64,000 nucleotides of DNA from Desulfosudaceae bacterium (GCA_963674745.2 CAXXDV010000003.1:1600001-1664000), one strand, 5' to 3'. Counted from the stretch's first letter, positions 345 through 29,173 are shown. A program made the numbers and translations. The notes: generated from the letters alone by a model not told the origin.

Positions 345-354
345 GGGGTCGGAC
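345..354 (+). repeat. GGGGTCGGAC boundary motif (family A)
   Basis: Intergenic copy of the motif also found at 1624, 9436, 12112, 21450 and 25519. Confidence 0.7.
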
Positions 355-374
355 AAAACCAATATAAAACAACA

Positions 375-1550
375 TCAGGATAGAATTATTTCTGTTATTT
401 CGTTGAAAGTACCCAGCCTCATGGGCGGCCCCCATCCGCCGGTTCCCTGATTTACATATATTTTCGTGTTGTTAAGTTTATAAACGCCTTTTAAAAAAGG
501 CTGATGTAAATCAACAAGATATGTAAAGGGCCATATCTGTCCCCCATGTGTGTGCCCGGCCAAAACAAGGTCTGCTCCATATTCGGAAGCTTTTATGGCC
601 GTGACTGGCTGATGGGCAAGAAGAATTTTCTTTGAGCCGTTATTTATTCCGGCAAGTGCTTTTTTGCAGTCAGAAGCAAATTTGCTCCCGAATGTTTTTG
701 CTCGATAGTCAGTAACGCCGGCCAGGTAAAAAGAATCGCCGCCGGCCCTGATTTCAATATTTTCATTATTAAGTACTTTAATACCGGATTCTGCAATCGC
801 CCGGGTCCATTTTTTAACGCCGTTGTAATACTCATGGTTTCCGGTTACAAAATAAACGCCTTTTTTTGCTTTCAGGTTTTTTAAAGGGCTGATCTCGTCT
901 ATAAGATTTTCAAGCGGGCCGTCTGCAATATCCCCTGTTATCGCGATCATGTCAGGCTTTAATTCGTTCACCCGGTTAACGATCCGGCTCAGCGCCTTTC
1001 CTGTCATCATCTGGCCAATGTGGAGATCGGATATCTGAACAATTTTAAAACCTTTGAATATTTCAGGCAGACCGTCGAGTGAAATATTTATTTTAGTTAC
1101 AACCGCGTCGGTGTAATAATTTTTAACGCCAATGAAAGATAAACCCAAAACCAGTGCTGAAACCCCGCAGACGACAATCCTGAAAATAAATTCTCTTCTG
1201 TCCGGATTGGCGATGCTCTCTTCTGTACCCGGGAGTTTCGAATAAATAAAAACAAGTAAATGAACGACATCCGTAAAGAGAAAGGCAAAGAAAAACAGCA
1301 TCATTATACCGAGCCAGAAATAAGCACCCCACAAAACCGGATAAGAAAACTTAAGCGGCAGCATCCGGTAAGCGATCTCGGCAGCCGGAATTGACAGGCA
1401 CAGCACGACTAAACATAATGTCCCGAAATATTTAAACGTGCTGCTCAGGCCGGTATCACTTACCATTTTAATCCATAAGTAGTAATGAATTGAGGAAATG
1501 ACCAGAATTGAGACACATAAGAAAATAATTAAAGCCAGCGTTTTAGACAT
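375..1550 (-). CDS. Membrane-anchored metallophosphoesterase (calcineurin-like, YkuE type)
   Basis: N-terminal TM helices, then DLH, GD, GNHE, LAHQP and GHTHGGQ motifs. Confidence 0.92.
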   Translation of the reverse strand: MSKTLALIIFLCVSILVISSIHYYLWIKMVSDTGLSSTFKYFGTLCLVVLCLSIPAAEIAYRMLPLKFSYPVLWGAYFWLGIMMLFFFAFLFTDVVHLLVFIYSKLPGTEESIANPDRREFIFRIVVCGVSALVLGLSFIGVKNYYTDAVVTKINISLDGLPEIFKGFKIVQISDLHIGQMMTGKALSRIVNRVNELKPDMIAITGDIADGPLENLIDEISPLKNLKAKKGVYFVTGNHEYYNGVKKWTRAIAESGIKVLNNENIEIRAGGDSFYLAGVTDYRAKTFGSKFASDCKKALAGINNGSKKILLAHQPVTAIKASEYGADLVLAGHTHGGQIWPFTYLVDLHQPFLKGVYKLNNTKIYVNQGTGGWGPPMRLGTFNEITEIILS

Positions 1551-1623
1551 ATTTGTATCCGGGGAGATCGTTCTCTTCTGATATATAATTTATAAAAAAA
1601 CGGCTCTGACGAAAAAACCAGCC

Positions 1624-1750
1624 GGGGCAGGACCAAACCAACAGTCTGCTCTAAAACAAGATACACCTCAAAACCACCGAAAAACAAGGATTAGAGTGCC
1701 CATCAACATGTGGTGGCCATAAAAGCAAGTTCTTATCCTTTCCTTTATGA
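1624..1750 (+). mobile_element. Short non-autonomous element: family A motif, internal module and TTCTTATCC end
   Basis: Starts GGGGCAGGACC. TAAAACAAGATACACCTCAAAACCACCGAA is nearly identical to the sequence at ~21501-21530, CCATCAACATGTGGTGG is shared with ~18463, and it ends GGCCATAAAAGCAAGTTCTTATCCTTTCC. Confidence 0.6.
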
Positions 1751-1845
1751 TAAGTTTGCGTATTTCGCAGTATTTTTCTCCAATATTTTGTAGTTTGTAA
1801 TCCGTCAAAAACAATAACCTGCTGAATATTATTGATTATTCTTTT

Positions 1846-1861
1846 CGGCATGATTAATGCT
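1846..1861 (+). promoter_or_regulatory. Putative sigma54 -24/-12 promoter
   Basis: CGGCATGATTAATGCT has the GG-N10-GC spacing and lies ~85 bp upstream of the ORF at 1947. Confidence 0.5.
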
Positions 1862-1946
1862 CTAAAGATTACGATAAGATAAGAAGGTTGCGGTATCCTT
1901 TTGCAAGCAACCATAACAGCAACATTATTAACTGGAGGATGAGAGG

Positions 1947-2816: not shown

Positions 2817-2828
2817 CAAAAAAACAGG

Positions 2829-2860: not shown

Positions 2861-2884
2861 TTACAATTCGGAATTCCAGGAATT

Positions 2885-4551: not shown

Positions 4552-5046
4552 GACGTGTCCATTCCTCCAATGGATGCTACCGTAATAACAAAAAAGAAGA
4601 TAGCCGTCAAAAAGCAAGTCGTTTTAATAAACGGTTTCATCGTGCTCCCCCTGCCCTGTCTTTTTTGTTCAAAGCGATATTAAGCGGTCCATGTCAGTTG
4701 CGTTTCGGCAAATATTAACGATAAGTTATTTGATGTGAATAAAACATATTAACATATGCATCTAAGATTTTTCTTCACAAAAGGGCCTGCCTGATAAAAA
4801 AAGATATTTTTCTCTAAAACGATCTGCGTACAAAATTAACCAAAAGAAGGTTTAGAACGCCCTTTTTAAATCTGAAAAGAACGTGTTAAGATTTTTTAAG
4901 GTGTTAGGTTATATGGAATGGGGTCAATTTTTCTGGACGCCGGATCGGAGGCGGGGTGAAGAAAAAGAAAGCCTGATGATGATTGAACATTGACACCCTC
5001 CGTGTTATGTTTTTAAAAACTGAACCCTTTAAGGCTCTTCAATGAC

Positions 5047-5937
5047 ATGATGAGAGACAACAACAAACTTTTTGAACTGACTGATACCGATTCTCCTGCT
5101 GAGACCCTGGCCGAGATAAAATATATCCTGCATTTGATCGACCCTGATTTGGATCCATCGCCCATCGAAAAGATATTCAGGGATATCATCCTCATCTTTA
5201 CCGGGAAATTCCCCGGATACCGGGCAGCCAACACAAAATATCATAACCTTGAGCATACCTGTTCTACGGCTCTTGCTGCTGCCAGGCTCATTCATGGATT
5301 GCATGTCCAGGATGCGGTTTTTTCACCCCGGCTTGTTCAGCTTTGCCTGATCGGCGCGCTTTTTCACGATACGGGCCTGATCCAGACCGAAAAAGAAGTG
5401 GCGGGTACCGGGGCCCAATACACCATCGGTCACGAGAATCGCTCAATCGCCCTCATGGAGAAATATCTCTCTGGAAACGGATATTCCCGTGAGGACATCC
5501 GCGACTGTGGCCATATGATCAAGTGTACGGAACTCGCCTTTAACATGGACGATATCCCGTTTGCGTCTGAAGAAGTCGGGACCATGGCCAGAATCGTTGG
5601 CACCGCCGACCTGGTCGCCCAGATGGCGGACAAAAATTACCAGGAAAAACTCCCCCTGCTTTTTCTGGAGTTCCAGGAAGCCGGAATAAAAGGATTTGAG
5701 ACCCCTCTGGAGCTTTTTAAAGAAACCGAAGGCTTTTATCGATCGATCGCACGTAAACGAATGAAAAATGAACTCAACGGCATTTCTTCGGCAGCGCTTT
5801 ATCATTTCAGGGACAGGTGGAATATCGACCGGAACCTTTACGAGGATTCAATCAAGTACAATATAAGGCTGATGAAGGAAACGGTGATGGAGTCGCTGAT
5901 GCAGCTTTCCATTGTTTCAGGGCCGGATAAAGAATGA
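5047..5937 (+). CDS. HD-domain metal-dependent phosphohydrolase
   Basis: YHNLEH, FHDTG, HENRS and TADL motifs. Confidence 0.85.
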   Translation: MMRDNNKLFELTDTDSPAETLAEIKYILHLIDPDLDPSPIEKIFRDIILIFTGKFPGYRAANTKYHNLEHTCSTALAAARLIHGLHVQDAVFSPRLVQLCLIGALFHDTGLIQTEKEVAGTGAQYTIGHENRSIALMEKYLSGNGYSREDIRDCGHMIKCTELAFNMDDIPFASEEVGTMARIVGTADLVAQMADKNYQEKLPLLFLEFQEAGIKGFETPLELFKETEGFYRSIARKRMKNELNGISSAALYHFRDRWNIDRNLYEDSIKYNIRLMKETVMESLMQLSIVSGPDKE

Positions 5938-6060
5938 TGGCTTCGTAAAAAATTCAAGATCAAGGCGCGCAAATCCTGAGGAATGCAACAACATACATAG
6001 AAGTACGTGAAATTCCGAATGATGCAGCGCAACGAAGATATTGAACTTTTTACGAAGCCA

Positions 6061-7536
6061 TCAGGAAAAGATATGCTGCACGGGCTGAATCCCGAGGGCT
6101 GACGGGTGAAAGGTTTCGACGATACCCTTTTTATATTTGCCGGTTTCCGGATCGCGTTCGTCCAGGTTGATGATGTCTATTTTCTTATAACTGCCGTCTT
6201 TCTCTTTTTCCAGGATGCAGACCAATGGCCTTTTTCTAAAATCTCTGCTGGGAGAACTGACGACCAGGGCGAGTTCGCCGGTTTTAAGCTTCAGCAGGGT
6301 GCCGACCGGGTATACCCCAAGAATACTGATGAGCACCTTGATGAGGGTGGGATCATAGTGTTTTCCGGCACGATCGAACATGTAGCCAAGGGCTCGGTCA
6401 GGACTCAGCAGGTATTTCCTGTAAGCCCGCGCTGATGTTAAAGTGTCATATTTGTCTGCGATGGAAATAATTTTGCCGAAAAGGGTCATCGGTTTTTTCC
6501 AGCCGGCATGGGGATAGCCGGACAGGTCGTATCTCAGGTGATGCTCAAACATCGGCACCATGATTCTGGCCTTGCCTTCAGGGGATGCATTGAGCCTTAA
6601 TAACAGTCTTGCGCTGTTCAGTGAATGCGCTTCAACAAGTTTCAGCTCGCTGTCGGTCAGTTTATCCCTTTTATGCAGAATTTCGGCGGGGATTTCAATT
6701 TTCCCAAGGTCATGAAAAAGGGCACATATGCCAAGGCTGACGATATTGCGACGCGAGAGATTGATGCGCCTGCCGATGCACATGGACAGCATGGCAACAT
6801 TCACTGAATGCGTATAGGTGTAGTCGTCAAATACCCGGAGTGTGCTGATGGCAGCATAAACTTCGTCATCCTCGATAAGATGCGTCGTCATGCCCTGGAC
6901 AACCCGGACGGTTTTCCGTATACCCACCTCACGCTTCCCGTCTTTTAACTTCTGGGCGACTTCTTCGAGAGAGGCCCTGGCATAAGTGTAGTCCTTTCTG
7001 GCCCGTTCCATCCGTTCTGCCTTGTCCTTGTAAGAGGATTCACTGTCATCCTGAGGCCTTTCCGTTTTTTCGATCAGTTCAACCCATTGGATGTTTTCAG
7101 CCTCAAGGCAGTCTGTAATCCAGGCCAGCGGTTTCGGCTTTTGTTCCGCACTGTCCAGAAGACGCATGAACGCCAGGATCTCTTTTGCAGAGGCATCCGT
7201 GATAGCTTCGCGCAGACGCACGCCCTCCAGGCCGCGGGTACTGAAATAACGTATGATGTTATCAAAAAGACTCTTTGTAGTTCTGGTGTAGCTGAGTTTT
7301 TCATCATCAACATACAACTGGTCATTGGAGATTTTGAACGTCAATGCGTCATCATCAATGCAGTTTTTTATGGACCTGGAAAATTTTTCAATTCCCTCTT
7401 TAACCAGCGTATGGTTTTCGTTGTGAATTCGTGCCATCTGGCCCAGGCTGTAGAAGTTACGCAGGAATTCTTCAAATCCCGAATAGGCCTTGCTTTTTTC
7501 ACCATCAGACATTGGTGTCTTCTCCTGAGACATCAC
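6061..7536 (-). CDS. HD-GYP domain protein (putative cyclic-dinucleotide phosphodiesterase)
   Basis: YTYTHSVNV, HDLGK, HHLRYDLSGYP, IADKYD and a YPVG C-terminal segment. Confidence 0.9.
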   Translation of the reverse strand: MMSQEKTPMSDGEKSKAYSGFEEFLRNFYSLGQMARIHNENHTLVKEGIEKFSRSIKNCIDDDALTFKISNDQLYVDDEKLSYTRTTKSLFDNIIRYFSTRGLEGVRLREAITDASAKEILAFMRLLDSAEQKPKPLAWITDCLEAENIQWVELIEKTERPQDDSESSYKDKAERMERARKDYTYARASLEEVAQKLKDGKREVGIRKTVRVVQGMTTHLIEDDEVYAAISTLRVFDDYTYTHSVNVAMLSMCIGRRINLSRRNIVSLGICALFHDLGKIEIPAEILHKRDKLTDSELKLVEAHSLNSARLLLRLNASPEGKARIMVPMFEHHLRYDLSGYPHAGWKKPMTLFGKIISIADKYDTLTSARAYRKYLLSPDRALGYMFDRAGKHYDPTLIKVLISILGVYPVGTLLKLKTGELALVVSSPSRDFRKRPLVCILEKEKDGSYKKIDIINLDERDPETGKYKKGIVETFHPSALGIQPVQHIFS

Positions 7537-7537
7537 T

Positions 7538-9289: not shown

Positions 9290-9435
9290 ATAGTCAACAG
9301 AACTATGGTAAACGTTTATTCGACAAAATAAAAAACCACCAGCCCCACAAGGTGAATATTTAATGGTACGACATGAAAGCCTTTTTAGTCAAATGATTGC
9401 CGTTTTTGATCAAAATAAATTGGGGCGCACTAACC

Positions 9436-9454
9436 GGGGCCGGACCAGGTTAAC
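9436..9454 (+). repeat. GGGGCCGGACCAGGTTAAC boundary motif (family A)
   Basis: Matches 12112-12130 at 17 of 19 positions; the two copies bracket the 9463..12000 kinase gene. Confidence 0.75.
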
Positions 9455-9462
9455 ATGCTGGC

Positions 9463-12000
9463 CTATGTTCCAACCTCACCGGCACATTCATCCAGCACCC
9501 AACGAACAGCAGCGGCCAGTTGATCCCGCCGAACCGGCTTCATCAAAAAGGCATTGATCCCCAGGGCCGTGGCCTTTTTTTCATCTATCTGCTGGTTGAA
9601 GCCCGTGCACAGAATAACGGGCAATCGGGGCCGGATTTTATGAATTTCGGCGATCAGCTGAACACCGGTCATTTCCGGCATGGTCATGTCGGTCACCATC
9701 AGGTCAAACGTATCCGGGGCGTTCCGAAAAGCTTCCAGGGCGAGCGGACTGCCAACGTGCGGCGTCACTTTATAACCGAAGCCGGTCAAGAGCGAATTCA
9801 ACATGTCAAGGATACTGAGCTCGTCGTCAACCAGGAGAATATGTTCCGTTCCCCTGTTGGCCGAACCAGGCTTGTCCGCCGGCATTGGAGCGCACTCTGG
9901 GCCTGCCGCCGCCACCGGAAGAAAAACATGAAATGTCGCCCCCTGCCCGGGTGTGCTGGACACATCGATCAGGCCTTCATGCTCTCTGACGATCCCATAA
10001 GAAACTGACAGCCCCAGGCCGGTGCCTTTACCGATTTCCTTGGTCGTATAAAAGGGATCAAAGATTTTCATCATAACCGCCGGGTCCATCCCTGTGCCCG
10101 TGTCCGAAACAGACAGGTCGATGTAGTTCCCGGGCGCTATCTCCACACTCGGCAGTCGATCCCCAACAAGCTCAATTTCATTAAGCCCGATCGCAATTAT
10201 GCCGACATCCGCCTCCATGGCGTGGTGAGCGTTCACGATCAGGTTCATCAGCACCTGATGGATTTGGCCGGGATTGGCCATCACCGGCCGGCAGGACGAA
10301 TCAATATCAGCCCTTATCTCTATTGAGGTGGGTATAGAATGCCGGGTCAGGTCCAGTACCTCACGGATGATGTCCTGTATTTTGACGGGTGTTTTGTCGC
10401 TCTGCCGCTGCCGGCTGAAGGCGAGAATCTGTTTGACCAGATCGCTTGCTCGAGAGGCACTGCCCAGAATGGCTCGGGCATATTTTTGTTGTAGACTGTC
10501 GCCGCGCGTTATTTCCATGAGCATCTCAGCGTAACCGACGATCGGTGACAGGACGTTGTTGAAGTCATGCGCAATGCCGCCGGCAAGTGTTCCGATGGAC
10601 TCCATTTTCTGGGCCTGCAGGAGCTGGGATTGGAGGCTGATATTTTCCATCTCGGCCCGGCGGCGGGCGGTGATGTCACGGAACGTCCAGATACGGCCGT
10701 AGTTTTGGCCGTCTTTGCCTACAACAGGCGCCGAATATCGCTCCAAAACAGTCCCGTCCTTCAGTGCGACTTCGTCCTGCAATGTCTCCTCCGGATGGTT
10801 GTAAAGAAAGGTAACCTGCGCCAGAAACGCTTCCGGGTCCTTTGTTGAATTCATAACATACTGGACCTGGGTCTGATCATCGTCATTGTCGGCGATATGT
10901 TGCGGGATTTTCCAGAGTTCAATGCTCCGTCGGTTTTGAAAGACCTTTTTCCCTCTGCCGTCAACCACCAAAAGGCCTTCAGTGGTGGTATTGGCCTGGG
11001 CCTCTAAAAGCGCGGCCTGCCGGCGCAACTCGTCTTCCGCCCGTTTCTGATCCGATATATCGCGGGCCACTGAATACGTCACCCCCTTTTCCGGCTTCGG
11101 GTGTGACACCCAACTGAGCCAGCGGTAGCTACCGTCCCGGCACATATACCGGTTAATGAAATTGATTACCCTTTCCCCTTTTTGAAGTTTCGACTCCACC
11201 ATGTCTATTGTCTTCATGACATCATCCGGATGGATAAATTCAAGAAACGGTTTTGACTGGAGCTCATCTTCAGTAAAACCGAGCGTTTCCGTAAAGGCCG
11301 GATTGATCCTTATAAATGTCGAGGTCCGGATATCGGCAATGCATAGCATATCGAGGGACATGGAGAACACCTGCTCGAATTCTTTTCGGGCAAGCTGAAA
11401 GTAGATCAGAATCATCCCGATTGCGACAATAATCTCAATAAAGGCCCCCAGCAGGTATCCCCATGGGGCAAACCACTCCACGGGCCTCAGGAAGGGGTAA
11501 TCGATCTTGTGAACCCCCCATATGATAAAAGCAATCCCGACAACGCTCGGAAGGATTCCGTCCACCGTTCTGTACCGGAGTATCATGATGCCGGTCCAGA
11601 TGAAAACCATCCCGATAAACAGATAATTGGGAAGGCTTAAGAAAAGCAGGGTGGTGTCCGTCATGCCGCAGGCAAAAATCCACATGCCAATGGCAACTGC
11701 AAGATACACCCATAGCCGGTGCATGGACCGGTTGATAAAAACAAAGGTCCCGTACATCAGAAACATTCCGCTCAAGAGGGTGGTGATCTGGTTGCTGATC
11801 AACAGATACCGGGAATAGTCGTCGGGCCCGGCTGTAATCAGCACCAGCATCAATACGAAACGCAGGGTATATATGCACCACCCTATGGACCAGATGAACA
11901 GGTATTTCTGCCTGTCAACCGTATACAGGTAGAAGAAGGTCAGGGTCAGGACGACCGTTCCTGACAGCGTTGCGACAACCGAAGGTATCAGCCAGTTCAT
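9463..12000 (-). CDS. Membrane hybrid sensor histidine kinase (7TM, 2xPAS, HisKA, HATPase, REC)
   Basis: AHDFNN, NLIVNA, DTGTG, FYTTK, GTGLGL and a C-terminal receiver (LVDDE, TDMTMP). Confidence 0.95.
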   Translation of the reverse strand: MNWLIPSVVATLSGTVVLTLTFFYLYTVDRQKYLFIWSIGWCIYTLRFVLMLVLITAGPDDYSRYLLISNQITTLLSGMFLMYGTFVFINRSMHRLWVYLAVAIGMWIFACGMTDTTLLFLSLPNYLFIGMVFIWTGIMILRYRTVDGILPSVVGIAFIIWGVHKIDYPFLRPVEWFAPWGYLLGAFIEIIVAIGMILIYFQLARKEFEQVFSMSLDMLCIADIRTSTFIRINPAFTETLGFTEDELQSKPFLEFIHPDDVMKTIDMVESKLQKGERVINFINRYMCRDGSYRWLSWVSHPKPEKGVTYSVARDISDQKRAEDELRRQAALLEAQANTTTEGLLVVDGRGKKVFQNRRSIELWKIPQHIADNDDDQTQVQYVMNSTKDPEAFLAQVTFLYNHPEETLQDEVALKDGTVLERYSAPVVGKDGQNYGRIWTFRDITARRRAEMENISLQSQLLQAQKMESIGTLAGGIAHDFNNVLSPIVGYAEMLMEITRGDSLQQKYARAILGSASRASDLVKQILAFSRQRQSDKTPVKIQDIIREVLDLTRHSIPTSIEIRADIDSSCRPVMANPGQIHQVLMNLIVNAHHAMEADVGIIAIGLNEIELVGDRLPSVEIAPGNYIDLSVSDTGTGMDPAVMMKIFDPFYTTKEIGKGTGLGLSVSYGIVREHEGLIDVSSTPGQGATFHVFLPVAAAGPECAPMPADKPGSANRGTEHILLVDDELSILDMLNSLLTGFGYKVTPHVGSPLALEAFRNAPDTFDLMVTDMTMPEMTGVQLIAEIHKIRPRLPVILCTGFNQQIDEKKATALGINAFLMKPVRRDQLAAAVRWVLDECAGEVGT

Positions 12001-12111: not shown

Positions 12112-12130
12112 GGGGTCGGACCAGGCTAAC
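12112..12130 (+). repeat. GGGGTCGGACCAGGCTAAC boundary motif (family A)
   Basis: Direct repeat of 9436-9454. Confidence 0.75.
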
Positions 12131-12279
12131 TTAGGGTATTCCGGTATTCCGGGGACATCCATGATAAGTAAAGTCAAGGGAAAAAAAGAGTTTTCCCATC
12201 CGCCAAAGAATACCCCCTGGTGGTTATGTTCCCGGTTCTCCGCGTAAGCTCTTTTTAATCTGTGTCTATTCGATCGACG

Positions 12280-12470
12280 GTCTGCCGCGACCAGACATCC
12301 ATTTGCTGTATCAGCCGCTTTATCCTTAATAAATAAAGCGGCGTCACAGAAGATTGAGTTTGGGTTAAAACCCGCCGGCCTCGAAACAGTATAAAAGATT
12401 GTATCTCGATCGGCTGTTCGATCACACAGTCCCCAAAACGCGAGGCCCGGCGGGAAAGCAACAGACGGAT
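12280..12470 (-). ncRNA. Candidate bridge RNA (seekRNA) of the IS110 element; ends approximate
   Basis: Two stem-associated loops. Segments at 12429-12434 and 12386-12393 match the target GGGGAC/ACAGTATA; segments at 12358-12362 and 12295-12302 match the donor junction CAAAC/ACATCCAT. Confidence 0.75.
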
Positions 12471-12490
12471 AAACCGTTATTTTATAAAAT

Positions 12491-13528
12491 CTATGCCGCT
12501 TCCTGTTCTTCTCCTTTCGGCAGTTCAAACGTCTTTTGTCCTTTATCAACCGCAAGCATGTAGGCGACAAGCTTTCGTGCTACCGCCAGCGTGGCCCGGT
12601 TTTTATTGCCTTTCTCGATCTCTCGGGCATGCACCTCGGCCAGTTGCGGGTTCCAGTAAGGTGCCAGTTTGGCCGCTTCGACCAATATCGTTTGTAAATG
12701 TTTGTTTCGCTTCTTCGATATTGGGCCTCTCATATTTTTGCCGGCCGACTCTCTTTGAGCGCTGCATAACCCGCAATAACTGACAGCTTTCCGGGCCGAT
12801 GAAAAACGGCCAGGATCTCCGATCTCCAGTGCCCAGGTCAGGGCCGTAACCTCTCCGACACCCCTGATGGACATCAGTCGATCCACCCGTTCTTTTATCT
12901 GCTCATTATTGCGGAGCACCTTTAACAGTTTTTTTTGGATATCGGTAAACATCTCATATCCGGATCGGGACATGCGCAGCAGGTTTATTACCGACTCGGG
13001 CACATCTTCCATGTTCTCCAGCAACTCACGAAAATATTTTTTCCGGTGCAGTCTGCTTTTGGTGTATTCCGCGCCGCATTCCATCAGGAGGCCGGATATT
13101 TTGTTTTGCATACGAACCGCCTCTCTGACGATATGATTGCGATAACGGAGAATGCGGCGCAACTCCCGCATATCCTCAGGCATCATGTAACACTCCGGCA
13201 ATAAATCGCACCGCAACAGATCGGCAATCATTCGCGCGTCTACTTTGTCGTTTTTCTTTTTGGATGCAGAAATAGCCTTGAGCATCTGGGGATGGGCGAC
13301 CTTCAACTCCTCAGCATACGGTTTTAAAAAATCATAAATCCATCCTGAAAACATCGTTGCTTCCATGGCGCCTGTCCACGGCCCTGGCAGACCATCTGCC
13401 CAGTGGGTTAAAGCGGAACGCGTAGCGGATATCACCCCTTGTCCGATAACGGTTCCGTCTTGTTGTTTAATGCAATAAGCGATAGTTTTCTTGTGAATGT
13501 CCAGTCCGATATAGTATGATTTTTTCAT
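12491..13528 (-). CDS. IS110-family DEDD transposase/recombinase
   Basis: YIGLDIHK, MEAT, KNDKVDARMIA, GVGEVTA, YCGLCSAQRESAG and AVARKL motifs. AGGAGG RBS precedes ATG 13528. Confidence 0.97.
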   Translation of the reverse strand: MKKSYYIGLDIHKKTIAYCIKQQDGTVIGQGVISATRSALTHWADGLPGPWTGAMEATMFSGWIYDFLKPYAEELKVAHPQMLKAISASKKKNDKVDARMIADLLRCDLLPECYMMPEDMRELRRILRYRNHIVREAVRMQNKISGLLMECGAEYTKSRLHRKKYFRELLENMEDVPESVINLLRMSRSGYEMFTDIQKKLLKVLRNNEQIKERVDRLMSIRGVGEVTALTWALEIGDPGRFSSARKAVSYCGLCSAQRESAGKNMRGPISKKRNKHLQTILVEAAKLAPYWNPQLAEVHAREIEKGNKNRATLAVARKLVAYMLAVDKGQKTFELPKGEEQEAA

Positions 13529-13704
13529 GGGAGACCTCCTTGTTTGTGGATTCAGATTCTGAGCAAGCCCAGTGCCTGTCTCAGCCGGTATTTTAAATAC
13601 CACATCTGCCACCGGGAGGTCTCCTCTCTCAATTAACTTACTTATGCATTCAAACAGTATACTGGTTTAAATCTATATACAGAGATCGCCAGACCGGAAT
13701 TCCA

Positions 13705-15345: not shown

Positions 15346-15352
15346 GAATCTC

Positions 15353-15364
15353 GGGGACAGTATA
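15353..15364 (+). repeat. GGGGACAGTATA motif (family B), an empty IS110 target site
   Basis: Exact 12-bp match to the reconstituted IS insertion site; lies between two genes. Confidence 0.8.
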
Positions 15365-15380
15365 TCGATTTATTTGCAGC

Positions 15381-16112
15381 TTAAACCGCCCCGGTGTTAT
15401 TTTCGATTTCCTGCTTGAAGTAGGCATTCGCCAGTTGAAGGAAATCGTCACGTGACAGCAGCTCTTGTGAAACGCGGTTTAACACCTCGTCCGGAATGAC
15501 TTCATTCCGCCCGGCGAACCGCCCGGCCTCACGACAGCCTTCGTAGACAGGCTTCATCCTGTCCGGTTCGAGTGCATCGAAAATTTCCATCATCGGTCCG
15601 TGGGGCCTGAGAAGGGAGCCCAGGTACTGCCGGCAACCCAGCCGGACAAAAGCCTGAACATGCGCTACCAGCTCATCGAAGTGATGCATCTCGTGAAAAC
15701 CGCAGTTGGACAACAGCACCATCGAAGAGTTTTTGGTTCCCTCGCGGAACGGATGGGTACACTGACCGTCCTTGACTTCAATGAACGGCAGCGCCAGCGG
15801 AATGATCCGGTCCATCATGATTTTCATCTGGGCCGTCATGCCGCATACATAGAGCGGCGTAGCGAGAACCACCACATCCGCCTGTCGCAAAAGTTCGAGC
15901 ATACGCTGCATGTCATCCTTCTGCACGCATTCTCCGGGTGTCTTGAGCCAGCAGTTGAAACACCCGATGCAGGGATTGATTTTCATTCCCTGAAGATAGA
16001 CCAGGTCAACAGTTGCACCTGTTTCTTTTGCCCCCTCAATAAACGGTAGCAGCATACGGTCCGTATTGCTCAATTTCTTCCTGGGGCTGCCGTTGATCGC
16101 CAGAAGTTTCAT
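15381..16112 (-). CDS. Iron-sulfur flavoprotein / NADPH-dependent FMN reductase family
   Basis: INGSPRK, CIGCFNCW…C and ATPLY motifs. Confidence 0.88.
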   Translation of the reverse strand: MKLLAINGSPRKKLSNTDRMLLPFIEGAKETGATVDLVYLQGMKINPCIGCFNCWLKTPGECVQKDDMQRMLELLRQADVVVLATPLYVCGMTAQMKIMMDRIIPLALPFIEVKDGQCTHPFREGTKNSSMVLLSNCGFHEMHHFDELVAHVQAFVRLGCRQYLGSLLRPHGPMMEIFDALEPDRMKPVYEGCREAGRFAGRNEVIPDEVLNRVSQELLSRDDFLQLANAYFKQEIENNTGAV

Positions 16113-16198
16113 GCCCTCACCTCTTTTGTGTTTGTGTTATTGGAAAAAATGAACCGAACATCCCCCATCCAGGCATTTAAAAAAAATCATACTCTTAT

Positions 16199-16216
16199 TT
16201 CCAGGGACAGTATCCC
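16199..16216 (+). repeat. Degenerate family B motif (TTCCAGGGACAGTATCCC)
   Basis: Similar to TTCCGGGGACAGTATAC. Confidence 0.55.
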
Positions 16217-16236
16217 TATTTTAAATTTATTGCAGG

Positions 16237-16257
16237 AAGCCCCCTCGAAGGGGGCTT
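16237..16257. terminator. GC-rich hairpin
   Basis: AAGCCCCCT-CGA-AGGGGGCTT perfect stem, ~130 bp downstream of the minus-strand gene ending at 16389. Confidence 0.55.
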
Positions 16258-16301: not shown

Positions 16302-16368
16302 TTGATCAACAAGCCGGCCTTGTTATCGATAATGGCCATAAAAGCGACTTCTTATCCTTTCCTTATGA
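16302..16368 (+). repeat. Promoter/end module copy with a degenerate -35
   Basis: GGCCATAAAAGCGACTTCTTATCCTTTCCTTATGA is nearly identical to 1715-1750. Confidence 0.75.
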
Positions 16369-18169: not shown

Positions 18170-18209
18170 TCACGTTACTGTTCCTGCCGGTAGAATATGA
18201 CTGCTTGAT

Positions 18210-18258
18210 GGATAAGAGCTTGCTTTTATATAGCAAGTGCGGCCTTGTGTGTCAATAT
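18210..18258 (-). promoter_or_regulatory. Portable sigma70-type promoter module
   Basis: Minus strand reads TTGACA-17-TATATA then AAAGCAAGCTCTTATCC, upstream of the GT2 fragment and GT-C gene. Confidence 0.75.
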
Positions 18259-18633
18259 CTTTTAGGGTACCACCTAATAGGGCTCTTTTCTCATGTTCCC
18301 GATTATGGCTACTGGGCTGAATAATCCCAAAATTTGCCGACCGGGAGACACAGTAGCGCCGTCTCAAAAATCTCGTATTTTTCTTTGTATTCCACTGCTC
18401 TGACATTTTTTCTGTTCTTTTTATCTCTTTGATAATGTTCTTTAGAGTCCTGCGTTAAAGGGCCATCAACATGTGGTGGTCTCCTAAAACCATCGATTGG
18501 CAATGATTTATGATGAGACTGCCGGTTAAACGCTGGGCATTGATGCTACAGAAATTGAAGCCGCAGAGCGATTTTTTTGACCCTTGTGGCCGCTGAACAG
18601 CCCTGTAAAAAACCAATCGCAAGTTTGTGGGAG

Positions 18634-18700
18634 CTCAAAAATATTGACACACAAGGCTGTCCTTGCCATTAATGATGACCATAAAAGCAACTTCTTATCC
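18634..18700 (+). promoter_or_regulatory. Portable promoter module
   Basis: CTCAAAAATATTGACACACAAGG…CCATAAAAGCAACTTCTTATCC, 41 bp upstream of the ORF at 18742. Confidence 0.75.
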
Positions 18701-18741
18701 CTATCAGGAATAAGCATTTAATTGTTTTAAAGGTAAAAAAA

Positions 18742-21303: not shown

Positions 21304-21440
21304 GGGTATTGCAAAAAAACATCCGAGTCTCCTCTTATATTAGTGTTTAATAGAGAACCAATAATAAAAACAGAAGGGACCCAAATGGTAAAACAGCGAA
21401 TACACGATATCAGGAAAAAGGCCACCAGTAAACAATTTAA

Positions 21441-21753
21441 GGGGCCTCAGGGGTCGGACCTAAAGGGCCTCAGGGAGCGGACCTAACTAACGGTCTGATC
21501 TAAAACAAGATACATCTCAAAATCACCGAAGAATAAGGCTTAGAAAGCACTTTTTGCCCCTAAAAAGATCATTCTAAGTTTTTTTACATAATTGGCATCT
21601 TAAATCAATGTTATTAACCCCCAAAAGTTATTTTAAAAGCTAAGAAACAGCTTTATTTATTTTCACCGGGCGGATTAAAGTGCGGTCTCAAAAATATTGA
21701 CACACAAGACCGTCATTGCTATAAATGGTTAACTTAAAAACAAGTTCTTATCC
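21441..21753 (+). mobile_element. Longer non-autonomous element: duplicated family A motif, internal module and promoter end
   Basis: GGGGTCGGACC at 21450 sits in a near-tandem duplicated 23-mer. Internal homology to 1641-1695. TTGACA(21697)-17-TATAAA, then TTCTTATCC. Confidence 0.6.
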
Positions 21754-21832
21754 TTCCTTTATACTTATCCTTTGAAGACACTGGGGGTGCTGAAACGGAA
21801 ATAAAAACATTGACCGAACGCAGAACGTCATA

Positions 21833-22858
21833 ATGAAACCCGCATATTCAGTTATCACAGTCCTTGTTCTGACCCTAATCGTAATAATAGTCGGTGGAGA
21901 GTTATATCTTCGGCATCAGTTTTCGGCTTACACCACCGCCCTCTGCCCTTCACCATGCCAAAAAGACAACTCGATCGGCTGGATTAACAAAAAAGCCATC
22001 ATCAATAGCCCTTCCTTTTCGAACGATCGGGATAATATTACAATCACGCAGTCAGCAGACGGGAGAAGGATTACTTCTGATGATGGATTAAACAGTTCGA
22101 ATGTTCTCGATCAACTGGTTGTCGTCGGTGGATCTTTTACTCAAGGTTATGGCCTGTCTGACGAAGAAACCTGGCCCTGGCTTCTCCAACAAAAAACACC
22201 CTGCATAGAGATTTTAAATTATGGCACCACCGGATATGGAACATATCAATGCCTGCTAACGCTGGAACGGGTCCTTCCGACGTTGTCTTCACCCAAAATT
22301 GTCATATACGGATTTCTAGAGCATCATCTAATAAGAAATGTGTCACCACCCGATTGGCAGGCGATGCTGGCCATGAACCGGAAAGGAGAGGTTTGGCTTC
22401 CTTATGTTGATATTGATGAGCAAGGCAAACTGGTTCGTTATCCCCCCACTCCTGTCAAGCGATGGCCTTTGGACCATTCTTCAGCGATGGTAAGACTGAT
22501 TGAAATTATGTATCTGAAAACCTTTCAAAGCAGAAACTATTTTGAAAAAATGGACGCCGCCTGGCAACTTATTATGATAGAGATGAGAAACCTATGCGCC
22601 AGGCATGGCTGCCGCCTGGTAGTAATGATTCTTGGATTAAACGACCAAAGCCAAAAGCAGTTTTATACAACGTTCTTAAAAATGAACCATATTGACTATA
22701 TAGACGGCAGCCTCGAATTCTGTCCGGAGTTGCTGCTGGAAAAAGACCCTTTTCATCATCCCAACCCCAAGGCTAATGCCGTCTGGGCGGACATCCTCAG
22801 CAGTCATATTTATTGCCGGGAAAACGAACAGATTGATTTCGTCAAACGCGGACCCTGA
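21833..22858 (+). CDS. Membrane-anchored SGNH/GDSL hydrolase
   Basis: GGSFTQG, NYGTTGYGT and DPFHHPN motifs. Confidence 0.85.
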   Translation: MKPAYSVITVLVLTLIVIIVGGELYLRHQFSAYTTALCPSPCQKDNSIGWINKKAIINSPSFSNDRDNITITQSADGRRITSDDGLNSSNVLDQLVVVGGSFTQGYGLSDEETWPWLLQQKTPCIEILNYGTTGYGTYQCLLTLERVLPTLSSPKIVIYGFLEHHLIRNVSPPDWQAMLAMNRKGEVWLPYVDIDEQGKLVRYPPTPVKRWPLDHSSAMVRLIEIMYLKTFQSRNYFEKMDAAWQLIMIEMRNLCARHGCRLVVMILGLNDQSQKQFYTTFLKMNHIDYIDGSLEFCPELLLEKDPFHHPNPKANAVWADILSSHIYCRENEQIDFVKRGP

Positions 22859-23040: not shown

Positions 23041-23064
23041 TTCCGGAATTCCGGAGACTGTATG
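23041..23064 (+). repeat. Degenerate family B motif
   Basis: TTCCGGAATTCCGGAGACTGTATG versus the reconstituted IS site TTCCGGTATTCCGGGGACAGTATA (4 mismatches). Confidence 0.55.
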
Positions 23065-23687
23065 TCTGTTTTCGTGGAAATTCCGGCCGAACAATGACCC
23101 CGGCGGTGTGACGCCCCTGCCCTGTGCTTCTTAATATGGTTCGATCCCAAAGCATACACCATCCAGTTTTCTGGGAATTTGTCCTGAATATCAGGACAAA
23201 AATATATTCAATAATGGGTCCTGAGATGATCCTATCCCCATCCCATCACAATCAAATGAGCCGCGCAAAATCTGATATTCATTCAAAAAAGCCAATGTGT
23301 TTAATACGTTATTTATGATTCCATCCGTTTTAACCGTATGCATAATAAACCGCCGGATAAAAGCATTTGTCTTTGGCATATTTTTTGGAACCCATCAAAA
23401 CCAGATATAAACCGGATCGGTTTTTGAGCAGTTAATTGATTAAGGGAGGAATGCATATACCAGGAAAAAATTGTGCCGTTAAAACTTGTACAAGGAAGAG
23501 TGGGGGCGGAAATCCCTGCTATGTTATCCTGGTGATTCTGGTTTTGGTCTTTCCCCTTGCTATCCCGGCTCAAGCTGAAAAAGGATTATTATGGCATGGT
23601 AACTGTAAATAATCGTTTTAAATTCCGGTTAAATTCCGGCGGCCGTCTCTCTATTTCTTTGTAACTCGATTATATGAACAAAGAAGG

Positions 23688-23698
23688 ATGCTGTCCCC
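23688..23698 (-). repeat. Inverted family B motif (GGGGACAGCAT)
   Basis: Reads ATGCTGTCCCC on the plus strand; intergenic. Confidence 0.45.
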
Positions 23699-25154: not shown

Positions 25155-25158
25155 AACC

Positions 25159-25416: not shown

Positions 25417-25518
25417 GCAACCGGTTAACCATTATTGCGTTCATACCCATGAGTATTTTTTTATCCTATATTAAAGAACCCTTTTATTCCAGAAGTTCCG
25501 TCACCACCAGGGGTAACC

Positions 25519-25544
25519 GGGGTCGGACCAAAAGAAGGTTTAGA
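25519..25544 (+). repeat. Family A motif GGGGTCGGACCAAAAGAAGGTTTAGA
   Basis: The last 18 bp are identical to 4839-4856; the TAACCGGGG prefix is shared with 9431. Confidence 0.75.
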
Positions 25545-25712
25545 CTAACAGGTTGATTTAAAATCGCGAAAACCCCCTGAATCCCCCCCTAATTCTTGAG
25601 TTCTCCCCCGAATTCACCAAACAACTTTGAAAGATTGCCCGGAATTGCTATTATTGTAATGATACAAAACAATAGAGAGAACAAAATTAACATCCTGACC
25701 TGGGGAGAAAAA

Positions 25713-26810
25713 ATGGCGTTAAATTCGGATTCATCGAACCCGGCCGATAAAAGGCATATCCCTTCAAAAGCAAAGATGAAAAAATTCAAGGCGACCTTCA
25801 ACGGCGAGACGATAAGGGGCAATTATGTTCTTATCGACGCCAGATCGTCCGAAGAAAAAACGGCCGACAAGGCCGATGGAAGCCTGAAAGGCCCGGTAAT
25901 GGTATTCTTTCAGGGCCACGGTCAGCGGCCGAAAGACTGCTATGAATTCACGAAGGTGCTGGCGCTTAACGGTTTATCGGGTATATGCCTTGTGCCGACA
26001 TGCGACACCCCTTTTGGTGACGATCCGGCATGGCGGGGCGACCGGGGAAAAATGGTCATCCTGATGGAGGCGATCAGGCATATGCTCGATGAGTGCGGCG
26101 TCTCGGTCGAAGGCTTCAGCCCGATAACCGACATGCCATCGCTGATAAACGGCAGTCCCCTCGTCCCGAAGCCGGACAACAGTTCCGGGAACATCTGTTC
26201 GATCGGCTGGTCTCACGGCGGGATACTCGCCAGGGAATTTGCCTCGAACTATCCCGGCGCCGTCATTGGACTGGCCACTGTCTGCCCGGCCGGTTATAAA
26301 AAATGGAAAAATCCCGGCCATCTGCTCGTAAGATTCGCACTGGAAGCGATCAATTCGGGCGTGCAGACGCTGACAAAAAAATCCCCCGGCGCTATCGGTT
26401 CCGCGTGGGGGCTTACCTGCGGACTTACCGGTGATATTTCCAGATCGGTGACCGACAGCCTTTTGTCAGGCAAACCGTCCAAACTGACGAGGGCATATAA
26501 AGATATCAGCGACTGCGCCCGATTAACTGACGACAGCGTCGCACCGGTCGGCGGCCTTAAAAACATAGCGGTCATCTTCGCGCGCAACGATACATGCATA
26601 GCGGCAGGCGAATACGGCATCGGAAATCTTGATAATCCTTCCGACAGCGACATCGAAGCGTTCTGGAAGCGATACTATCCGTCTAATCCGGCGGACAAAA
26701 CGACTCTGGCATTCAGGATTCTGCCGGGATCGCATACGGCGCCGGCTGCGCACAGCAGGCGCTATGCCGAAACGGTTCTGTCCGCGCTCGGTCAGACCGG
26801 ATTGGAATAA
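25713..26810 (+). CDS. Alpha/beta-fold hydrolase
   Basis: VFFQGHG, GWSHGG nucleophile elbow and C-terminal GSH. GGGGAG RBS precedes ATG 25713. Confidence 0.8.
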   Translation: MALNSDSSNPADKRHIPSKAKMKKFKATFNGETIRGNYVLIDARSSEEKTADKADGSLKGPVMVFFQGHGQRPKDCYEFTKVLALNGLSGICLVPTCDTPFGDDPAWRGDRGKMVILMEAIRHMLDECGVSVEGFSPITDMPSLINGSPLVPKPDNSSGNICSIGWSHGGILAREFASNYPGAVIGLATVCPAGYKKWKNPGHLLVRFALEAINSGVQTLTKKSPGAIGSAWGLTCGLTGDISRSVTDSLLSGKPSKLTRAYKDISDCARLTDDSVAPVGGLKNIAVIFARNDTCIAAGEYGIGNLDNPSDSDIEAFWKRYYPSNPADKTTLAFRILPGSHTAPAAHSRRYAETVLSALGQTGLE

Positions 26811-26837
26811 ACGCACGAAGGGAGTCCCCTGGCTGGT

Positions 26838-26904
26838 AAATATTGACACACAAGGCCGGACCTTGCTATATGATGATGACCATAAAGGCAGCTTTTTTAT
26901 CCTT
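26838..26904 (+). promoter_or_regulatory. Portable promoter module
   Basis: AAATATTGACACACAAGGCCGGACCTTGCTATATGATGATGACCATAAAGGC…TTATCCTT. Confidence 0.75.
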
Positions 26905-26954
26905 CATTGAGTCATTTTGATGATACCAGTATGCAAATAAAGGAACCCGTTTAA

Positions 26955-27554
26955 ATGAAAAAATTCATCTTCCGCTCCGTCCTGTCAATTTCCATACTAT
27001 TGTTGGCTGTCAGCGTCTCTTATGCGGACAGTTTCAGCTTTAGATTATTGGCCAACCGGTCTGCCATTGACGGTGGCTTTGATGCCGTTACCAATGTGAA
27101 TGACAACAATTTCGTTACCGGTGTCAGCGGGGTATATAATGAGGATGAATATGAAATCGTATTTGCCAGGGCAATGATCAAAAACAAGCTGCCTATTAAT
27201 GGATTAGAGGGAATGCTCGGATTCAAGGGAGCCTGGGGAGAAGCCGAAAAGCACCGGCTTGATGGCGACCTGTCAAACGTCGCGTTTGCCCTTTCAGTCG
27301 CTTATGATCTAGCCATCGCCTATTCAGCGCAAATTCCCGTTACCCTTTCAGCAACCGCCAGTTTTGCACCCCAACCCCTTTGTTTTCGGGATTCGAATGA
27401 ATTTTTTGAAGCACTTGCGGAGATTGACTGGAAAGTTTTAAAAAATGCGGCTCTGGTGGCCCGCTATCGGTATATTGAAATCGATTTTGATAAAGGCACC
27501 CGGTGGGAAAAGAAGGACAGCACCGGATATGTGGGTTTAAAATTTTCTTTTTAA
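26955..27554 (+). CDS. Small outer-membrane beta-barrel protein (YfaZ-like)
   Basis: Signal peptide, amphipathic strands and C-terminal YVGLKFSF. Confidence 0.7.
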   Translation: MKKFIFRSVLSISILLLAVSVSYADSFSFRLLANRSAIDGGFDAVTNVNDNNFVTGVSGVYNEDEYEIVFARAMIKNKLPINGLEGMLGFKGAWGEAEKHRLDGDLSNVAFALSVAYDLAIAYSAQIPVTLSATASFAPQPLCFRDSNEFFEALAEIDWKVLKNAALVARYRYIEIDFDKGTRWEKKDSTGYVGLKFSF

Positions 27555-27557
27555 TTC

Positions 27558-27963
27558 CTACAGGCCTTTAGGCCGGCCGTTTTTATCCCATCCGCGGAGT
27601 TTATAATACCGGGAAAGCATCTTTTCCAGTTCGATTCCGGGCCAGCCATCTTCCCGGACCTCATTTAAGATGCGGTCAGGCAGGGTGTCATCGGCCCGGG
27701 TAATCCCTTCCCGGCAGTTCATGTACCGTTCCAGGTTGAAAGTGCGCTCGCCGGCAGTGTAAAAATCTTTTGAGGTGACGTTGTATCCCATGATGCCGGA
27801 CAGCAGCGCGGCATAGTCGGAAAGATCGGTTGTGGCAACCGCTATGGCAGGAAGGTAGCGCATCAACAGGCGCATGATGGGGATGGGGGTGTGCCTGTAT
27901 ATGAAATTCTCTTCTAAAAACGGAAATTCGGTCCATATGCAGAAGATGGCCGAGTTTACCGCT
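27558..27963 (-). pseudogene. Displaced duplicate of the AOR 3' end
   Basis: 27561-27963 is a 403-bp direct repeat of 31176-31578 with about 10 substitutions. Confidence 0.92.
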
Positions 27964-28086
27964 GCAGAAAACCGGCGATTTTGAAAAAAAGGCTTGAGTT
28001 GCCCGGATTATCGGGCGAGACGATTGCCTGGTCCGTTACTGTAAAATGAAATATAAAAGTTTTAACACACTTACCTGAGGAGGAAG

Positions 28087-28992
28087 ATGATGACAGGCGA
28101 AAAAACGGTTGAAGGGGAAAGCACTTGCGATATGGATTTTGACATGTACCTTGATGATGTGGCCCTTGCACAAAAAATTCTGGCCAGTGCCGATAAAAAT
28201 GACGAAAAAATCAGTGACGCGGGCATCGTGTTTGCTTTGCGGAACCTGCTGAAGATGAAATATTATCCCGTTGCGGTAAAATATTTTTTTGACGAAAAAG
28301 AACTCAAAGAATTTAAAAGCCATGCGACATACAAGGTGTCCCTGCATCCCGTCACCTTCTGCGCCTATGTGGCGGCAAGTAGGCAGCGGGGCGACATTTT
28401 GCTTGGAACCGCCGACAGAGTCGGCTGTTCCAATGCGAAGTACGTTCTGAACTGGAAAGAGCTGGATGAGGGCGAGATTAAAAGCCACCTTAAATACACA
28501 AAGGACCGGGCCCAGGCGGAAAAATTCGTAAAGACCAAAAAGCGGATGCCCAAGGCCCCCCTGGCGTTTGCCACCGCCCCGCTTCACAAGGCGCCCTTCA
28601 AGCCGGACCTGATCCATGGTATGTGCGACACGCTTCAGTCATATCATCTTGCAAACGACTGGAATGCCGCGTTTGACAGCCATCCTTTTGAAATGGTGAT
28701 GACAATGAATTCTTCCATCTGTCACGGCTGCGTCCAGTGTTTTGTAGTGGATAAATTCAATATTACCCAGATGTGCAGCAGCAGCTATACCGCCGGAAAG
28801 ACGGAACAGGGTGAAATTAACTGGATTATGCCTTACGCGCAGATGGAGCCCACAGTTCACTGGATGCTTGAGCGGACCGTCCGTGATGGTGGCGTCTCTT
28901 TAACGAGAACAGGAGAGACCTATCCGGGATTTGATATTTGTAAGCTTTGTCCTTTTCTGGTTTTCAAAAAACCCAGACAGGAGGCGGTGTAA
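28087..28992 (+). CDS. DUF169 family protein
   Basis: YYPVAVKYF, TFCAYV, GCSNA, KPDLI and conserved Cys pattern. Confidence 0.8.
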   Translation: MMTGEKTVEGESTCDMDFDMYLDDVALAQKILASADKNDEKISDAGIVFALRNLLKMKYYPVAVKYFFDEKELKEFKSHATYKVSLHPVTFCAYVAASRQRGDILLGTADRVGCSNAKYVLNWKELDEGEIKSHLKYTKDRAQAEKFVKTKKRMPKAPLAFATAPLHKAPFKPDLIHGMCDTLQSYHLANDWNAAFDSHPFEMVMTMNSSICHGCVQCFVVDKFNITQMCSSSYTAGKTEQGEINWIMPYAQMEPTVHWMLERTVRDGGVSLTRTGETYPGFDICKLCPFLVFKKPRQEAV

Positions 28993-29173
28993 AACCACCT
29001 TGTTTCAGAAGCCGGGCCGGCTATTCAGGGAACAACGGATCAATCACAGCCAGAACCGGGAGAAGCATGAGCTGGTACTTGAAGCATTCCGTTTTTCTGT
29101 TCTTTTTTATCTCTTTGATAATGTTCTAAAGAAGACAATACCGGCCCGACAATAAATAAAAAGGAACGTCCCC

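Follow-up and report, generated by a model that had tools for sequence, protein, structure and literature searches.

Relics of several mobile-element families as the probable source of gene-bounding repeats in a terminus-proximal zone of a Desulfosudaceae genome

Across the first 29 kb of a 64,000-nucleotide (nt) stretch of DNA from a Desulfosudaceae bacterium (the window: the whole stretch analysed, C3:1,600,001-1,664,000 of the 5.55-Mb genome G000, assembled in three contigs), unrelated genes are separated by intergenic spaces that carry pieces of the same few repeats, which raises the question of whether a gene-cassette system operates there. A preliminary description, made from the sequence alone, had distinguished a GGGG-headed motif A, a motif B and a shared promoter-bearing end, here module P, and had proposed an integron-like platform that accretes single genes at non-attC sites, perhaps mobilised by an HUH/Y1 nuclease. 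The answer reached here is a different one: with a probability of roughly 0.7, the motifs are relics of at least four unrelated mobile-element families in a plasticity zone, with P probably supplying promoters, and no cassette system is present. Judged by their sequences, the features would belong to known kinds, namely insertion sequence (IS) ends of IS91/ISCR type serving as mobile promoters, repeats like those of REP-associated tyrosine transposases (RAYTs) and their repetitive extragenic palindromic (REP) doublets (REPINs), and an IS110 element lodged in a palindrome.

The comparison drew on relatives that are other species, at 83-90% DNA identity, among them the congeneric sister genome G002 (99% complete). 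Two public runs (X5, X7) come from the same strain as the window and so offer no comparison between strains, and two others (X1, X3) are sediment metagenomes that hold relatives; joints seen in X1 and X3 are of low depth, or were aligned at 85% likeness, and serve as weak hints only. Copies of P were counted with an nhmmer profile at E<=0.01, those of A with a profile of its ~100-nt module at E<=0.1 and those of B with a profile at E<1, while chance levels of motifs A and B were judged against 100 shuffles each. Positions without a contig name count from the first letter of the window.

P is the conserved region at the 3' end of an insertion sequence of the IS91/ISCR-like, rolling-circle (Y2 HUH) kind. 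The shared end, running from TTGACACACAAG to TTCTTATCC, was correctly recognised in the preliminary description and stands at 18244 (minus strand), 18644, 21697 and 26843, with truncated copies at 1712-1741 and 16310-16360; genome-wide there are 39 copies, 30 of them on the plus strand. Similarity among copies ends abruptly at one constant right-hand point, after TTCTTATCC, and the left edge varies, the longest copies extending to the left across a ~210-nt module (X) and into the final codons of a transposase open reading frame. At C3:1014017-1015084, a 355-amino-acid (aa), 5'-truncated Y2_Tnp protein (PF04986, E=4.5e-18) is encoded directly in continuity with X and P. This is the one truncated IS91-like transposase gene that G000 holds, the rest being short gene fragments; an IS256/Mutator-family transposase gene fragment (C3:1013308-1014183) overlaps this sole long copy and truncates its 5' end. 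The transposase protein is matched at E<=1e-20 in 9 of 13 family genomes, and its full 464-aa frame is found only in G009, where the protein scores 166 bits against NF033538 (IS91 family; cut-off 125), also matches PF14319 (a zinc-binding N-terminus) and PF04986, and is encoded in the order transposase gene, X, P, co-oriented gene. At family level, 8 of 11 loci have P beside or after the transposase gene or fragments of it, as against none of 13 loci of more distant homologues.

The position of P relative to genes is equally regular. A co-oriented gene starts within 250 nt downstream in 32 of 37 copies, compared with 37% of random intergenic points (p=1e-9), and the 21 downstream proteins scanned belong to unrelated Pfam families or to none. 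Examples include a HipA-type toxin pair, a GDSL hydrolase, an M20 peptidase, PilZ, radical-SAM enzymes, a CBS protein, sensor kinases, FecR, TPR proteins and proteins without a family. The toxin pair, a helix-turn-helix and HipA-type toxin-antitoxin system at C3:2533537-2535124, lies directly downstream of P in a neighbourhood with three P-bearing elements within 8 kb. P carries an outward-facing promoter-like signal, made up of a perfect TTGACA and, after a spacer of 17 nt, a TATA(A/G/C)A box. Its CAAGG/CCTTG stem is conserved over 46 aligned copies, several of which show a paired G:C to A:T exchange (CAAGA/TCTTG).

For IS91-family elements, the accessible part of PMC13181058 describes distinct oriIS and terIS ends with subterminal palindromes, an oriIS downstream of the transposase gene of which ~82 bp suffice, insertion next to CTTG or GTTC without target duplication, and read-through at terIS in 1-14% of events. 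For ISCR1, the accessible part of PMC6218425 reports a 232-bp oriIS region downstream of the transposase gene with two functional outward promoters, and a co-oriented gene next to the oriIS end in 84% of 1127 copies. The likeness of the present element lies in a transposase of Y2 HUH type that bears a zinc domain at its N-terminus (the G009 protein), in a conserved non-coding region of ~300 nt after the gene with a sharp end and a subterminal palindrome, and in the unrelated co-oriented gene that comes next, at a frequency comparable to that of ISCR1. The differences are that nearly all P copies here lack a transposase gene, that P sits in the chromosome of an environmental anaerobe and is not connected with class 1 integrons or resistance genes, and that the ISCR clade Ia model scores far below its cut-off (149 vs 925 bits). 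The bases after the P end are CTTG in two copies, and CCTT, CCCT or CCAT in the others. P also resembles the putative mobile promoters treated in the accessible part of PMC3575422, in that very similar promoter-bearing sequence precedes non-homologous genes within a genome and across species; here, in contrast, the source of the promoter can be named, namely the end of an IS91-like element.

Motif A has a different origin: GGGGTCGGACC stands at the head of an inverted terminal arm, ~100 nt long, that belongs to a RAYT-like Y1 HUH transposase element. The six places given for it in the preliminary description comprise five exact matches to GGGGYMGGACC (1624, 9436, 12112, 21450 and 25519), all on the plus strand, against a chance expectation of 0.18 and with none of 100 shuffles reaching five, and a sixth, at 345, whose last base differs. 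The genome contains 23 matches to this head, only one exact copy being on the reverse strand, and the arm profile has 21 genome hits. Inverted pairs of the head occur in G002 and G009. On contig C14 of G002 (locus L073), GGGGTCGGACC at 1107-1117 and its reverse complement at 2039-2049 enclose a gene (1228-2025) for a 265-aa Y1 protein with HUH and catalytic-tyrosine motifs (PF01797, 35 bits, cut-off 23), whose best NCBIfam model is the REP-associated tyrosine transposase NF047646, at 68 bits against a required 80. In G009 the A element occurs as two 677-nt copies at separate sites, each with both arms (80-100 nt each) and a 5'-truncated Y1 gene whose 171-aa frame is identical in the two, as well as in a 405-nt internally deleted form. 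Searching 31 genomes by blastn with the G002 element found three places, all in G002, blastn being too insensitive for this family. Since G000 lacks an A-type Y1 gene and has a single reverse-strand head, its A copies are to be regarded as solo arms. Tn3-family ends also begin with GGGG; a Tn3 origin was rejected, PF01526 being unmatched in G000 and the inverted ends in G002 enclosing a Y1 gene.

That GGGG-headed motifs might flank Y1 genes elsewhere, as the preliminary description had suggested, thus holds for A in G002, and it extends to three Y1 genes of G000 outside the window, each flanked by GGGG-headed repeats of its own, none of which occurs within the window. The nearest, 10 kb to the left (C3:1589116-1590255), encodes a 379-aa protein that combines a Y1 domain with a DnaA-C-like helix-turn-helix; 47 nt upstream stands a GGGGACGTCTATG-type repeat, which has ~17 copies, including hairpin doublets (e.g. 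1591991/1592048), mostly near the gene (C3:1.55-1.60 Mb). The second (C3:2400231-2401320; 340 aa) is exactly bracketed by inverted GGGGACGCCCTTTAT-type repeats, of which the genome has only four copies, all within 4 kb. The third (C3:924847-925560; locus L045, 2840-3560) is a classical RAYT of 170 aa (106 bits, cut-off 80) with GGGG-headed hairpin repeats on both sides in direct orientation.

Motif B is a small REPIN-like palindrome family. Its 12-mer by itself is weak: GGGGACAGTATA is exact in the window only at 15353 (one match at up to 1 mismatch vs 0.19 expected, with 17 of 100 shuffles giving at least one), while at up to 2 mismatches there are 7 matches vs 3.1 expected, a number that 3 of 100 shuffles reach. 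Matches at 16203 and 23687 (minus strand) are among these, the site proposed at 23053 requires 3 mismatches, and the copy said to be split between 12151 and 13654 is indeed so divided. The longer profile shows a real family, with 20 hits, 17 of them in C3:1.50-1.63 Mb, and with inverted doublets at C3:1506335/1506403, 1548942/1549007 and 1555394/1555426. The interrupting sequence (12152-13654) is an IS110-family element whose transposase scores 210 bits against NF033542 (cut-off 140) and contains PF01548 and PF02371; its sole other copy, at C1:2188855-2190385, is 100% identical and has the same flanking half-sites. IS110-type elements target REP sequences. This case is like other IS110 elements in palindromes in that a site-specific element occupies the middle of a repeated palindrome and both copies share the flanking half-sites, and differs in that there are just two copies. 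A B-type palindrome at C3:1597739-1597810 holds ~40 nt with ends like those of the window IS110, which may be an IS110 footprint or a miniature derivative.

Taken as REPIN-RAYT systems, A and B show both agreement and departure. The accessible part of PMC5581495 describes RAYTs as usually single-copy and flanked by REPINs, some groups having few flanking repeats (12-14 occurrences), which the low repeat counts here match; furthermore, a Y1 HUH gene lies between inverted repeats (G002) that also occur elsewhere as extragenic doublets or singlets, the transposase is single-copy or lost, and B and the repeats of the other Y1 genes form hairpin doublets. On the other side, A arms measure ~100 nt instead of forming 20-40-nt palindromes, the A-type Y1 protein falls under the NCBIfam RAYT cut-off as noted above, and the heads are GGGG rather than the GTAG or CGTC tags that appear in the title of PMC3733652. 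In addition, the copies are few, about 17-21, and gathered mostly in one 190-kb zone instead of dispersed, and those of A are co-oriented.

The concentration of these families in one place is pronounced. The 190 kb at C3:1.49-1.68 Mb, 3.4% of the genome, hold 13 of 17 A hits (p=2e-16) and 13 of 39 P hits (p=3e-10), as well as the 17 of 20 B hits already mentioned; 11 of the 13 P ends in the zone are on the plus strand. The cumulative GC skew has its maximum at C3:1.36-1.42 Mb and is almost flat over the zone, which therefore adjoins the replication terminus. The preliminary description would have been undermined had the motifs been no more frequent at variable boundaries than elsewhere; they are in fact concentrated in the variable region and at synteny breakpoints. 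For most genes in the first 34 kb, G002 offers no counterpart at the DNA level, and the counterparts that do exist sit elsewhere there, while other parts of the genome keep synteny over 10-17 kb.

The features within the window are as follows.

345..375, plus strand: short remnant of an A arm, head off in its last base; abuts the stop of the phosphoesterase gene 375-1550 (minus strand); missed by the A profile.
1619..1741, plus strand: A arm (1619-1726) fused to a P end with its promoter part deleted (1712-1741); nhmmer and alignments.
4782..4967, plus strand: A-type arm with a degenerate head (judged by eye), reaching the left edge of the relatives' 3-gene block; by blastn, 4831-4967 matches C3:1545455-1545591.
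5936..6063, no strand assigned: palindromic MITE (miniature inverted-repeat transposable element) of 127 nt, a different family.
9305..9421, plus strand: 117-nt repeat of another family; G001 and G003 homology ends at its right edge.
9431..9465, plus strand: A-arm solo head that overlaps the hybrid histidine kinase gene at its 3' end; motif and A profile.
12112..12135, plus strand: A-arm solo head, situated upstream of the kinase gene; motif.
12139..13694, minus strand: IS110-family element in a B palindrome; transposase 12491-13612, B halves 12139-12151 and 13655-13694.
15345..15391, plus strand: B repeat between the GH51 and FMN-reductase genes; G003 homology ends at the adjoining stop codon.
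16196..16242, plus strand: B repeat upstream of the FMN-reductase gene; B profile.
16310..16360, plus strand: 5'-truncated P end that faces a convergent gene's 3' end and so departs from the promoter pattern.
18207..18288, minus strand: P end reading leftwards to gene 16389-17960 (minus strand).
18280..18703, plus strand: 5'-truncated IS91-like element, its P end 39 nt upstream of a TPR gene.
21440..21756, plus strand: A arm with two hairpins, its right end replaced by P (21663-21756), 77 nt upstream of gene 21833-22858.
23044..23090, plus strand: weak B-like repeat; profile E=0.25, 12-mer with 3 mismatches.
23687..23698, minus strand: weak inverted B-like 12-mer; 2 mismatches.
25514..25564, plus strand: A-arm solo head, situated upstream of gene 25713-26810; motif and A profile.
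26807..26903, plus strand: P end 51 nt upstream of a yfaZ-like gene.
27556..27963, plus strand: 408-nt copy (97%) of the 3' end of an aldehyde:ferredoxin oxidoreductase gene (31171-31578); blastn.
29092..29132, plus strand: X-module fragment of 41 nt.

Within this list, the element at 18280-18703 consists of the last ~14 Y2 transposase codons, the 3' untranslated X (to 18488), a 137-nt insert and P (18609-18703), and the A head at 21440-21488 is tandemly duplicated in two 23-nt units that are 81% alike. The MITE has 27-nt inverted ends and ~48 other places in G000; at 76-89% identity it is found across the whole family and in part of the order's genomes, and a metagenome relative has other sequence at exactly 5936-6063. 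The 117-nt repeat, with which the conserved 3-gene block ends on the right, occurs at four further places in G000 and is also present in G004. The direct repeat 27556-27963/31171-31578 brackets a DUF169 gene and an alkyl-sulfatase gene, as if these had been inserted with target duplication. Neither the Rfam search (E<=1) nor the tRNA scan of the region gave a match.

Between the motifs stand genes for a metallophosphoesterase, an endonuclease/phosphatase-fold protein, a SnoaL-like protein, an acyltransferase, an HD-domain protein, a hybrid histidine kinase, a GH51 arabinofuranosidase, an FMN reductase, TPR and GT2 proteins, DUF2284 proteins, a YfaZ-like protein and proteins without a family, with a G+C content of 0.35 to 0.56, in keeping with the earlier impression of unrelated genes of varied composition. 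They lie on both strands, each with its own upstream region, and no transposase gene stands between any pair of motifs of the window. The closeness of gene ends to motifs, also remarked on before, is real in several cases (8-27 nt) without being general: the boundary repeats are A, B, P, the MITE and the 117-nt repeat, and several boundaries have none, no motif being seen at 2816/2885, 3523/3520, 7536/7538 and 20397/20410.

Comparison with relatives places these repeats at many edges. In G002, A and P elements occur at junctions of syntenic blocks with mosaic islands. A 3-gene block (5047-9289) is common to G001, G003 and G005 in three different contexts, and its homology stops at ~4935 and 9421, with A-type sequence beside both ends. 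A contig from a sediment metagenome matches the window up to 12111, one base short of an A head, and G003 homology around the FMN-reductase gene stops ~10-40 nt from both B sites. Gene 25713-26810 has an A head upstream and P downstream in G000, while its orthologue in G002 has a complete A element at the 3' end, over the stop codon, and neither an upstream A nor P. Such placement of P and A around orthologues would fit small elements moving or decaying independently of genes. Among these other-species relatives, no exact empty/filled pair was found for gain or loss of a single gene at a site boundary, the breakpoints falling near A and B, and at the junction of a 72-kb island between G002 and G000 an A element stands on one side only, with no clean empty site.

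The analysis shows which element each module comes from, how many copies there are, how they cluster and where they stand relative to genes; promoter activity, the mode of truncation and a role in rearrangement are what we infer, and the course of events would then be the following. The first 29 kb lie in the ~190-kb terminus-proximal plasticity zone, whose intergenic spaces would carry one-ended relics of several non-autonomous elements. P is the side corresponding to oriIS in IS91 and ISCR1, with its subterminal hairpin and outward promoter-like signal; its copies would have shed the transposase gene to varying extents, the survivors being those just upstream of co-oriented genes, where P would persist because it probably drives them, like the POUT promoters of ISCR1. 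For A, G000 has lost the Y1 gene of a RAYT-like element and kept solo arms, and an IS110-family RNA-guided recombinase would use B as a target. The genes in between, unrelated and of varied composition, would be ordinary accessory genes of a variable region, and the repeats would mark points of rearrangement or insertion because the elements survive only between genes and offer homology for recombination.

Several points weigh against this account. In the single full copy of the IS91-like element, that of G009, no left end (terIS) could be recognised, and no empty site for P was recovered, the upstream region of a P-bearing G002 gene being unalignable with that of its G000 orthologue. The proposal that P probably drives the adjacent gene as an outward promoter is drawn from its position; a rule-based promoter scan called 24 sites vs 23.2 expected and flagged none of the full P modules, only the truncated copy at 16306-16333, the full ones being missed because their -10 box lacks the final T. 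Furthermore, the hairpins fold no better than shuffled sequence (z about -0.6 to -0.7), the folding energies of A and of P being undistinctive. A tblastn search of G000 with the A-type Y1 proteins found no gene copy and no match at the A arms. Of the 13 A arms of the zone, 12 point one way (plus strand) whatever the orientation of the neighbouring gene (p=0.003), which random transposon decay does not predict and for which no explanation was found; a rule based on replication direction was tried and rejected, as A copies outside the zone do not obey it. Finally, A arms lie within 1-15 nt of homology breakpoints (9421/9436 and 12111/12112), where a boundary-forming process would also have put them.

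Gene capture of ISCR type, in which one-ended rolling-circle transposition brought the neighbouring genes as cargo beside P ends, is the least improbable of the alternatives and nonetheless unlikely. According to the same part of PMC13181058, neighbouring DNA is mobilised in 1-14% of IS91-family events and a mini-element built as terIS-cargo-oriIS is moved in trans, and PMC6218425, in the part accessible, presents the oriIS side of ISCR1 as variable and mostly gene-bearing; genes downstream of P have a slightly lower G+C content (median 0.477 vs 0.515 for the genome, p=0.011), one P stands directly before a clearly foreign TPR gene of 35% G+C, and the mosaic-island edges in G002 carry both P and A. 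The IS91 model, however, carries DNA beyond terIS and not beyond oriIS, the window motif pairs enclose no transposase gene, and the unit A-gene-P at 25514-26903 is not preserved in G002. Moreover, two genes preceded by P in G002 have orthologues in G000 without a listed P copy nearby (for the one aligned, the upstream region could not be matched), and P in one species only fits P moving alone. A related and improbable view makes the terminus zone a working HUH-run platform for gene capture and expression, with IS91-like ends that deliver promoters or move with genes and co-oriented RAYT-type arms as boundaries of recombination or termination; this would explain the uniform arm orientation and the match to synteny breakpoints. 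Together with the slightly AT-richer genes downstream of P, these two features keep an active HUH role in bringing or wiring new genes in consideration at low probability. An HUH/Y1 nuclease behind the motifs, as the preliminary description supposed, is borne out as to origin, A being a Y1 arm and P a Y2 HUH end, and unsupported as to a mobilised cassette platform.

That P is conserved as the promoter of a regulon, with the CAAG..CTTG dyad between -35 and -10 as the operator of one regulator, and not as mobile DNA, is quite unlikely, even though the -35 box, the dyad and the first ~25 putatively transcribed bases are strongly conserved over the 46 copies, a co-oriented gene nearly always follows, and one of the nine P copies of G002 precedes the same PilZ gene as in G000. 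What speaks against it is that P runs on physically from an IS91-family transposase gene's 3' end in two genera, and from fragments of the gene in others, together with the lack of shared function downstream, the abrupt end of similarity at one fixed point and the clustering in a variable zone. The two ideas may be compatible, as a mobile promoter with an operator. Least probable of all is the integron-like platform itself, with A and B as recombination sites of single-gene cassettes that a trans-acting recombinase inserts and excises. Its appeal lies in the run of B, GH51 gene, B, FMN-reductase gene, B in direct orientation, in the G003 homology ending close to both B sites, in the co-oriented A arms (12/13) at synteny breakpoints and in a region that is mosaic relative to the sister species; as in integrons, including sedentary chromosomal ones, co-oriented repeats part unrelated genes of varied composition in a variable chromosomal region. 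Yet integrase, attI and a single attC-like family are all missing, and the repeats derive from transposon ends; of 21 genome matches to the tyrosine recombinase family PF00589, none lies between C3:590,880 and C3:2,332,584 or within 700 kb of the window. Transposase genes for the repeats are absent or truncated, A is demonstrably the arm of a Y1 transposon whose transposase is missing in G000, at least four unrelated repeat families occupy the boundaries, several boundaries are bare, the placement of A and P differs in the sister species, and the genes, on both strands, have their own promoters or P, unlike promoterless cassettes. A metagenome contig of low depth (5.4), and hence a weak hint, additionally joins 9418 to 9465, keeping the 3-gene block beside the kinase gene without an intervening A head.

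The interpretation preferred here, relics of several element families with P as a probable promoter source, bears on more than this locus. For annotation it carries a warning, as intergenic repeats beside unrelated genes can mimic cassette arrays. It offers a concrete source for "mobile promoters", in the form of an IS91-like end standing before ~30 unrelated genes, and with it a chromosomal, non-clinical parallel to the POUT of ISCR1. It further shows that one genome keeps several distinct families of GGGG-headed repeats, each tied to its own Y1 transposase, and that, unlike the dispersed REPINs known from earlier descriptions, most A and B copies and a third of the P copies are gathered in one co-oriented zone near the terminus, an arrangement that could inform how such elements spread.

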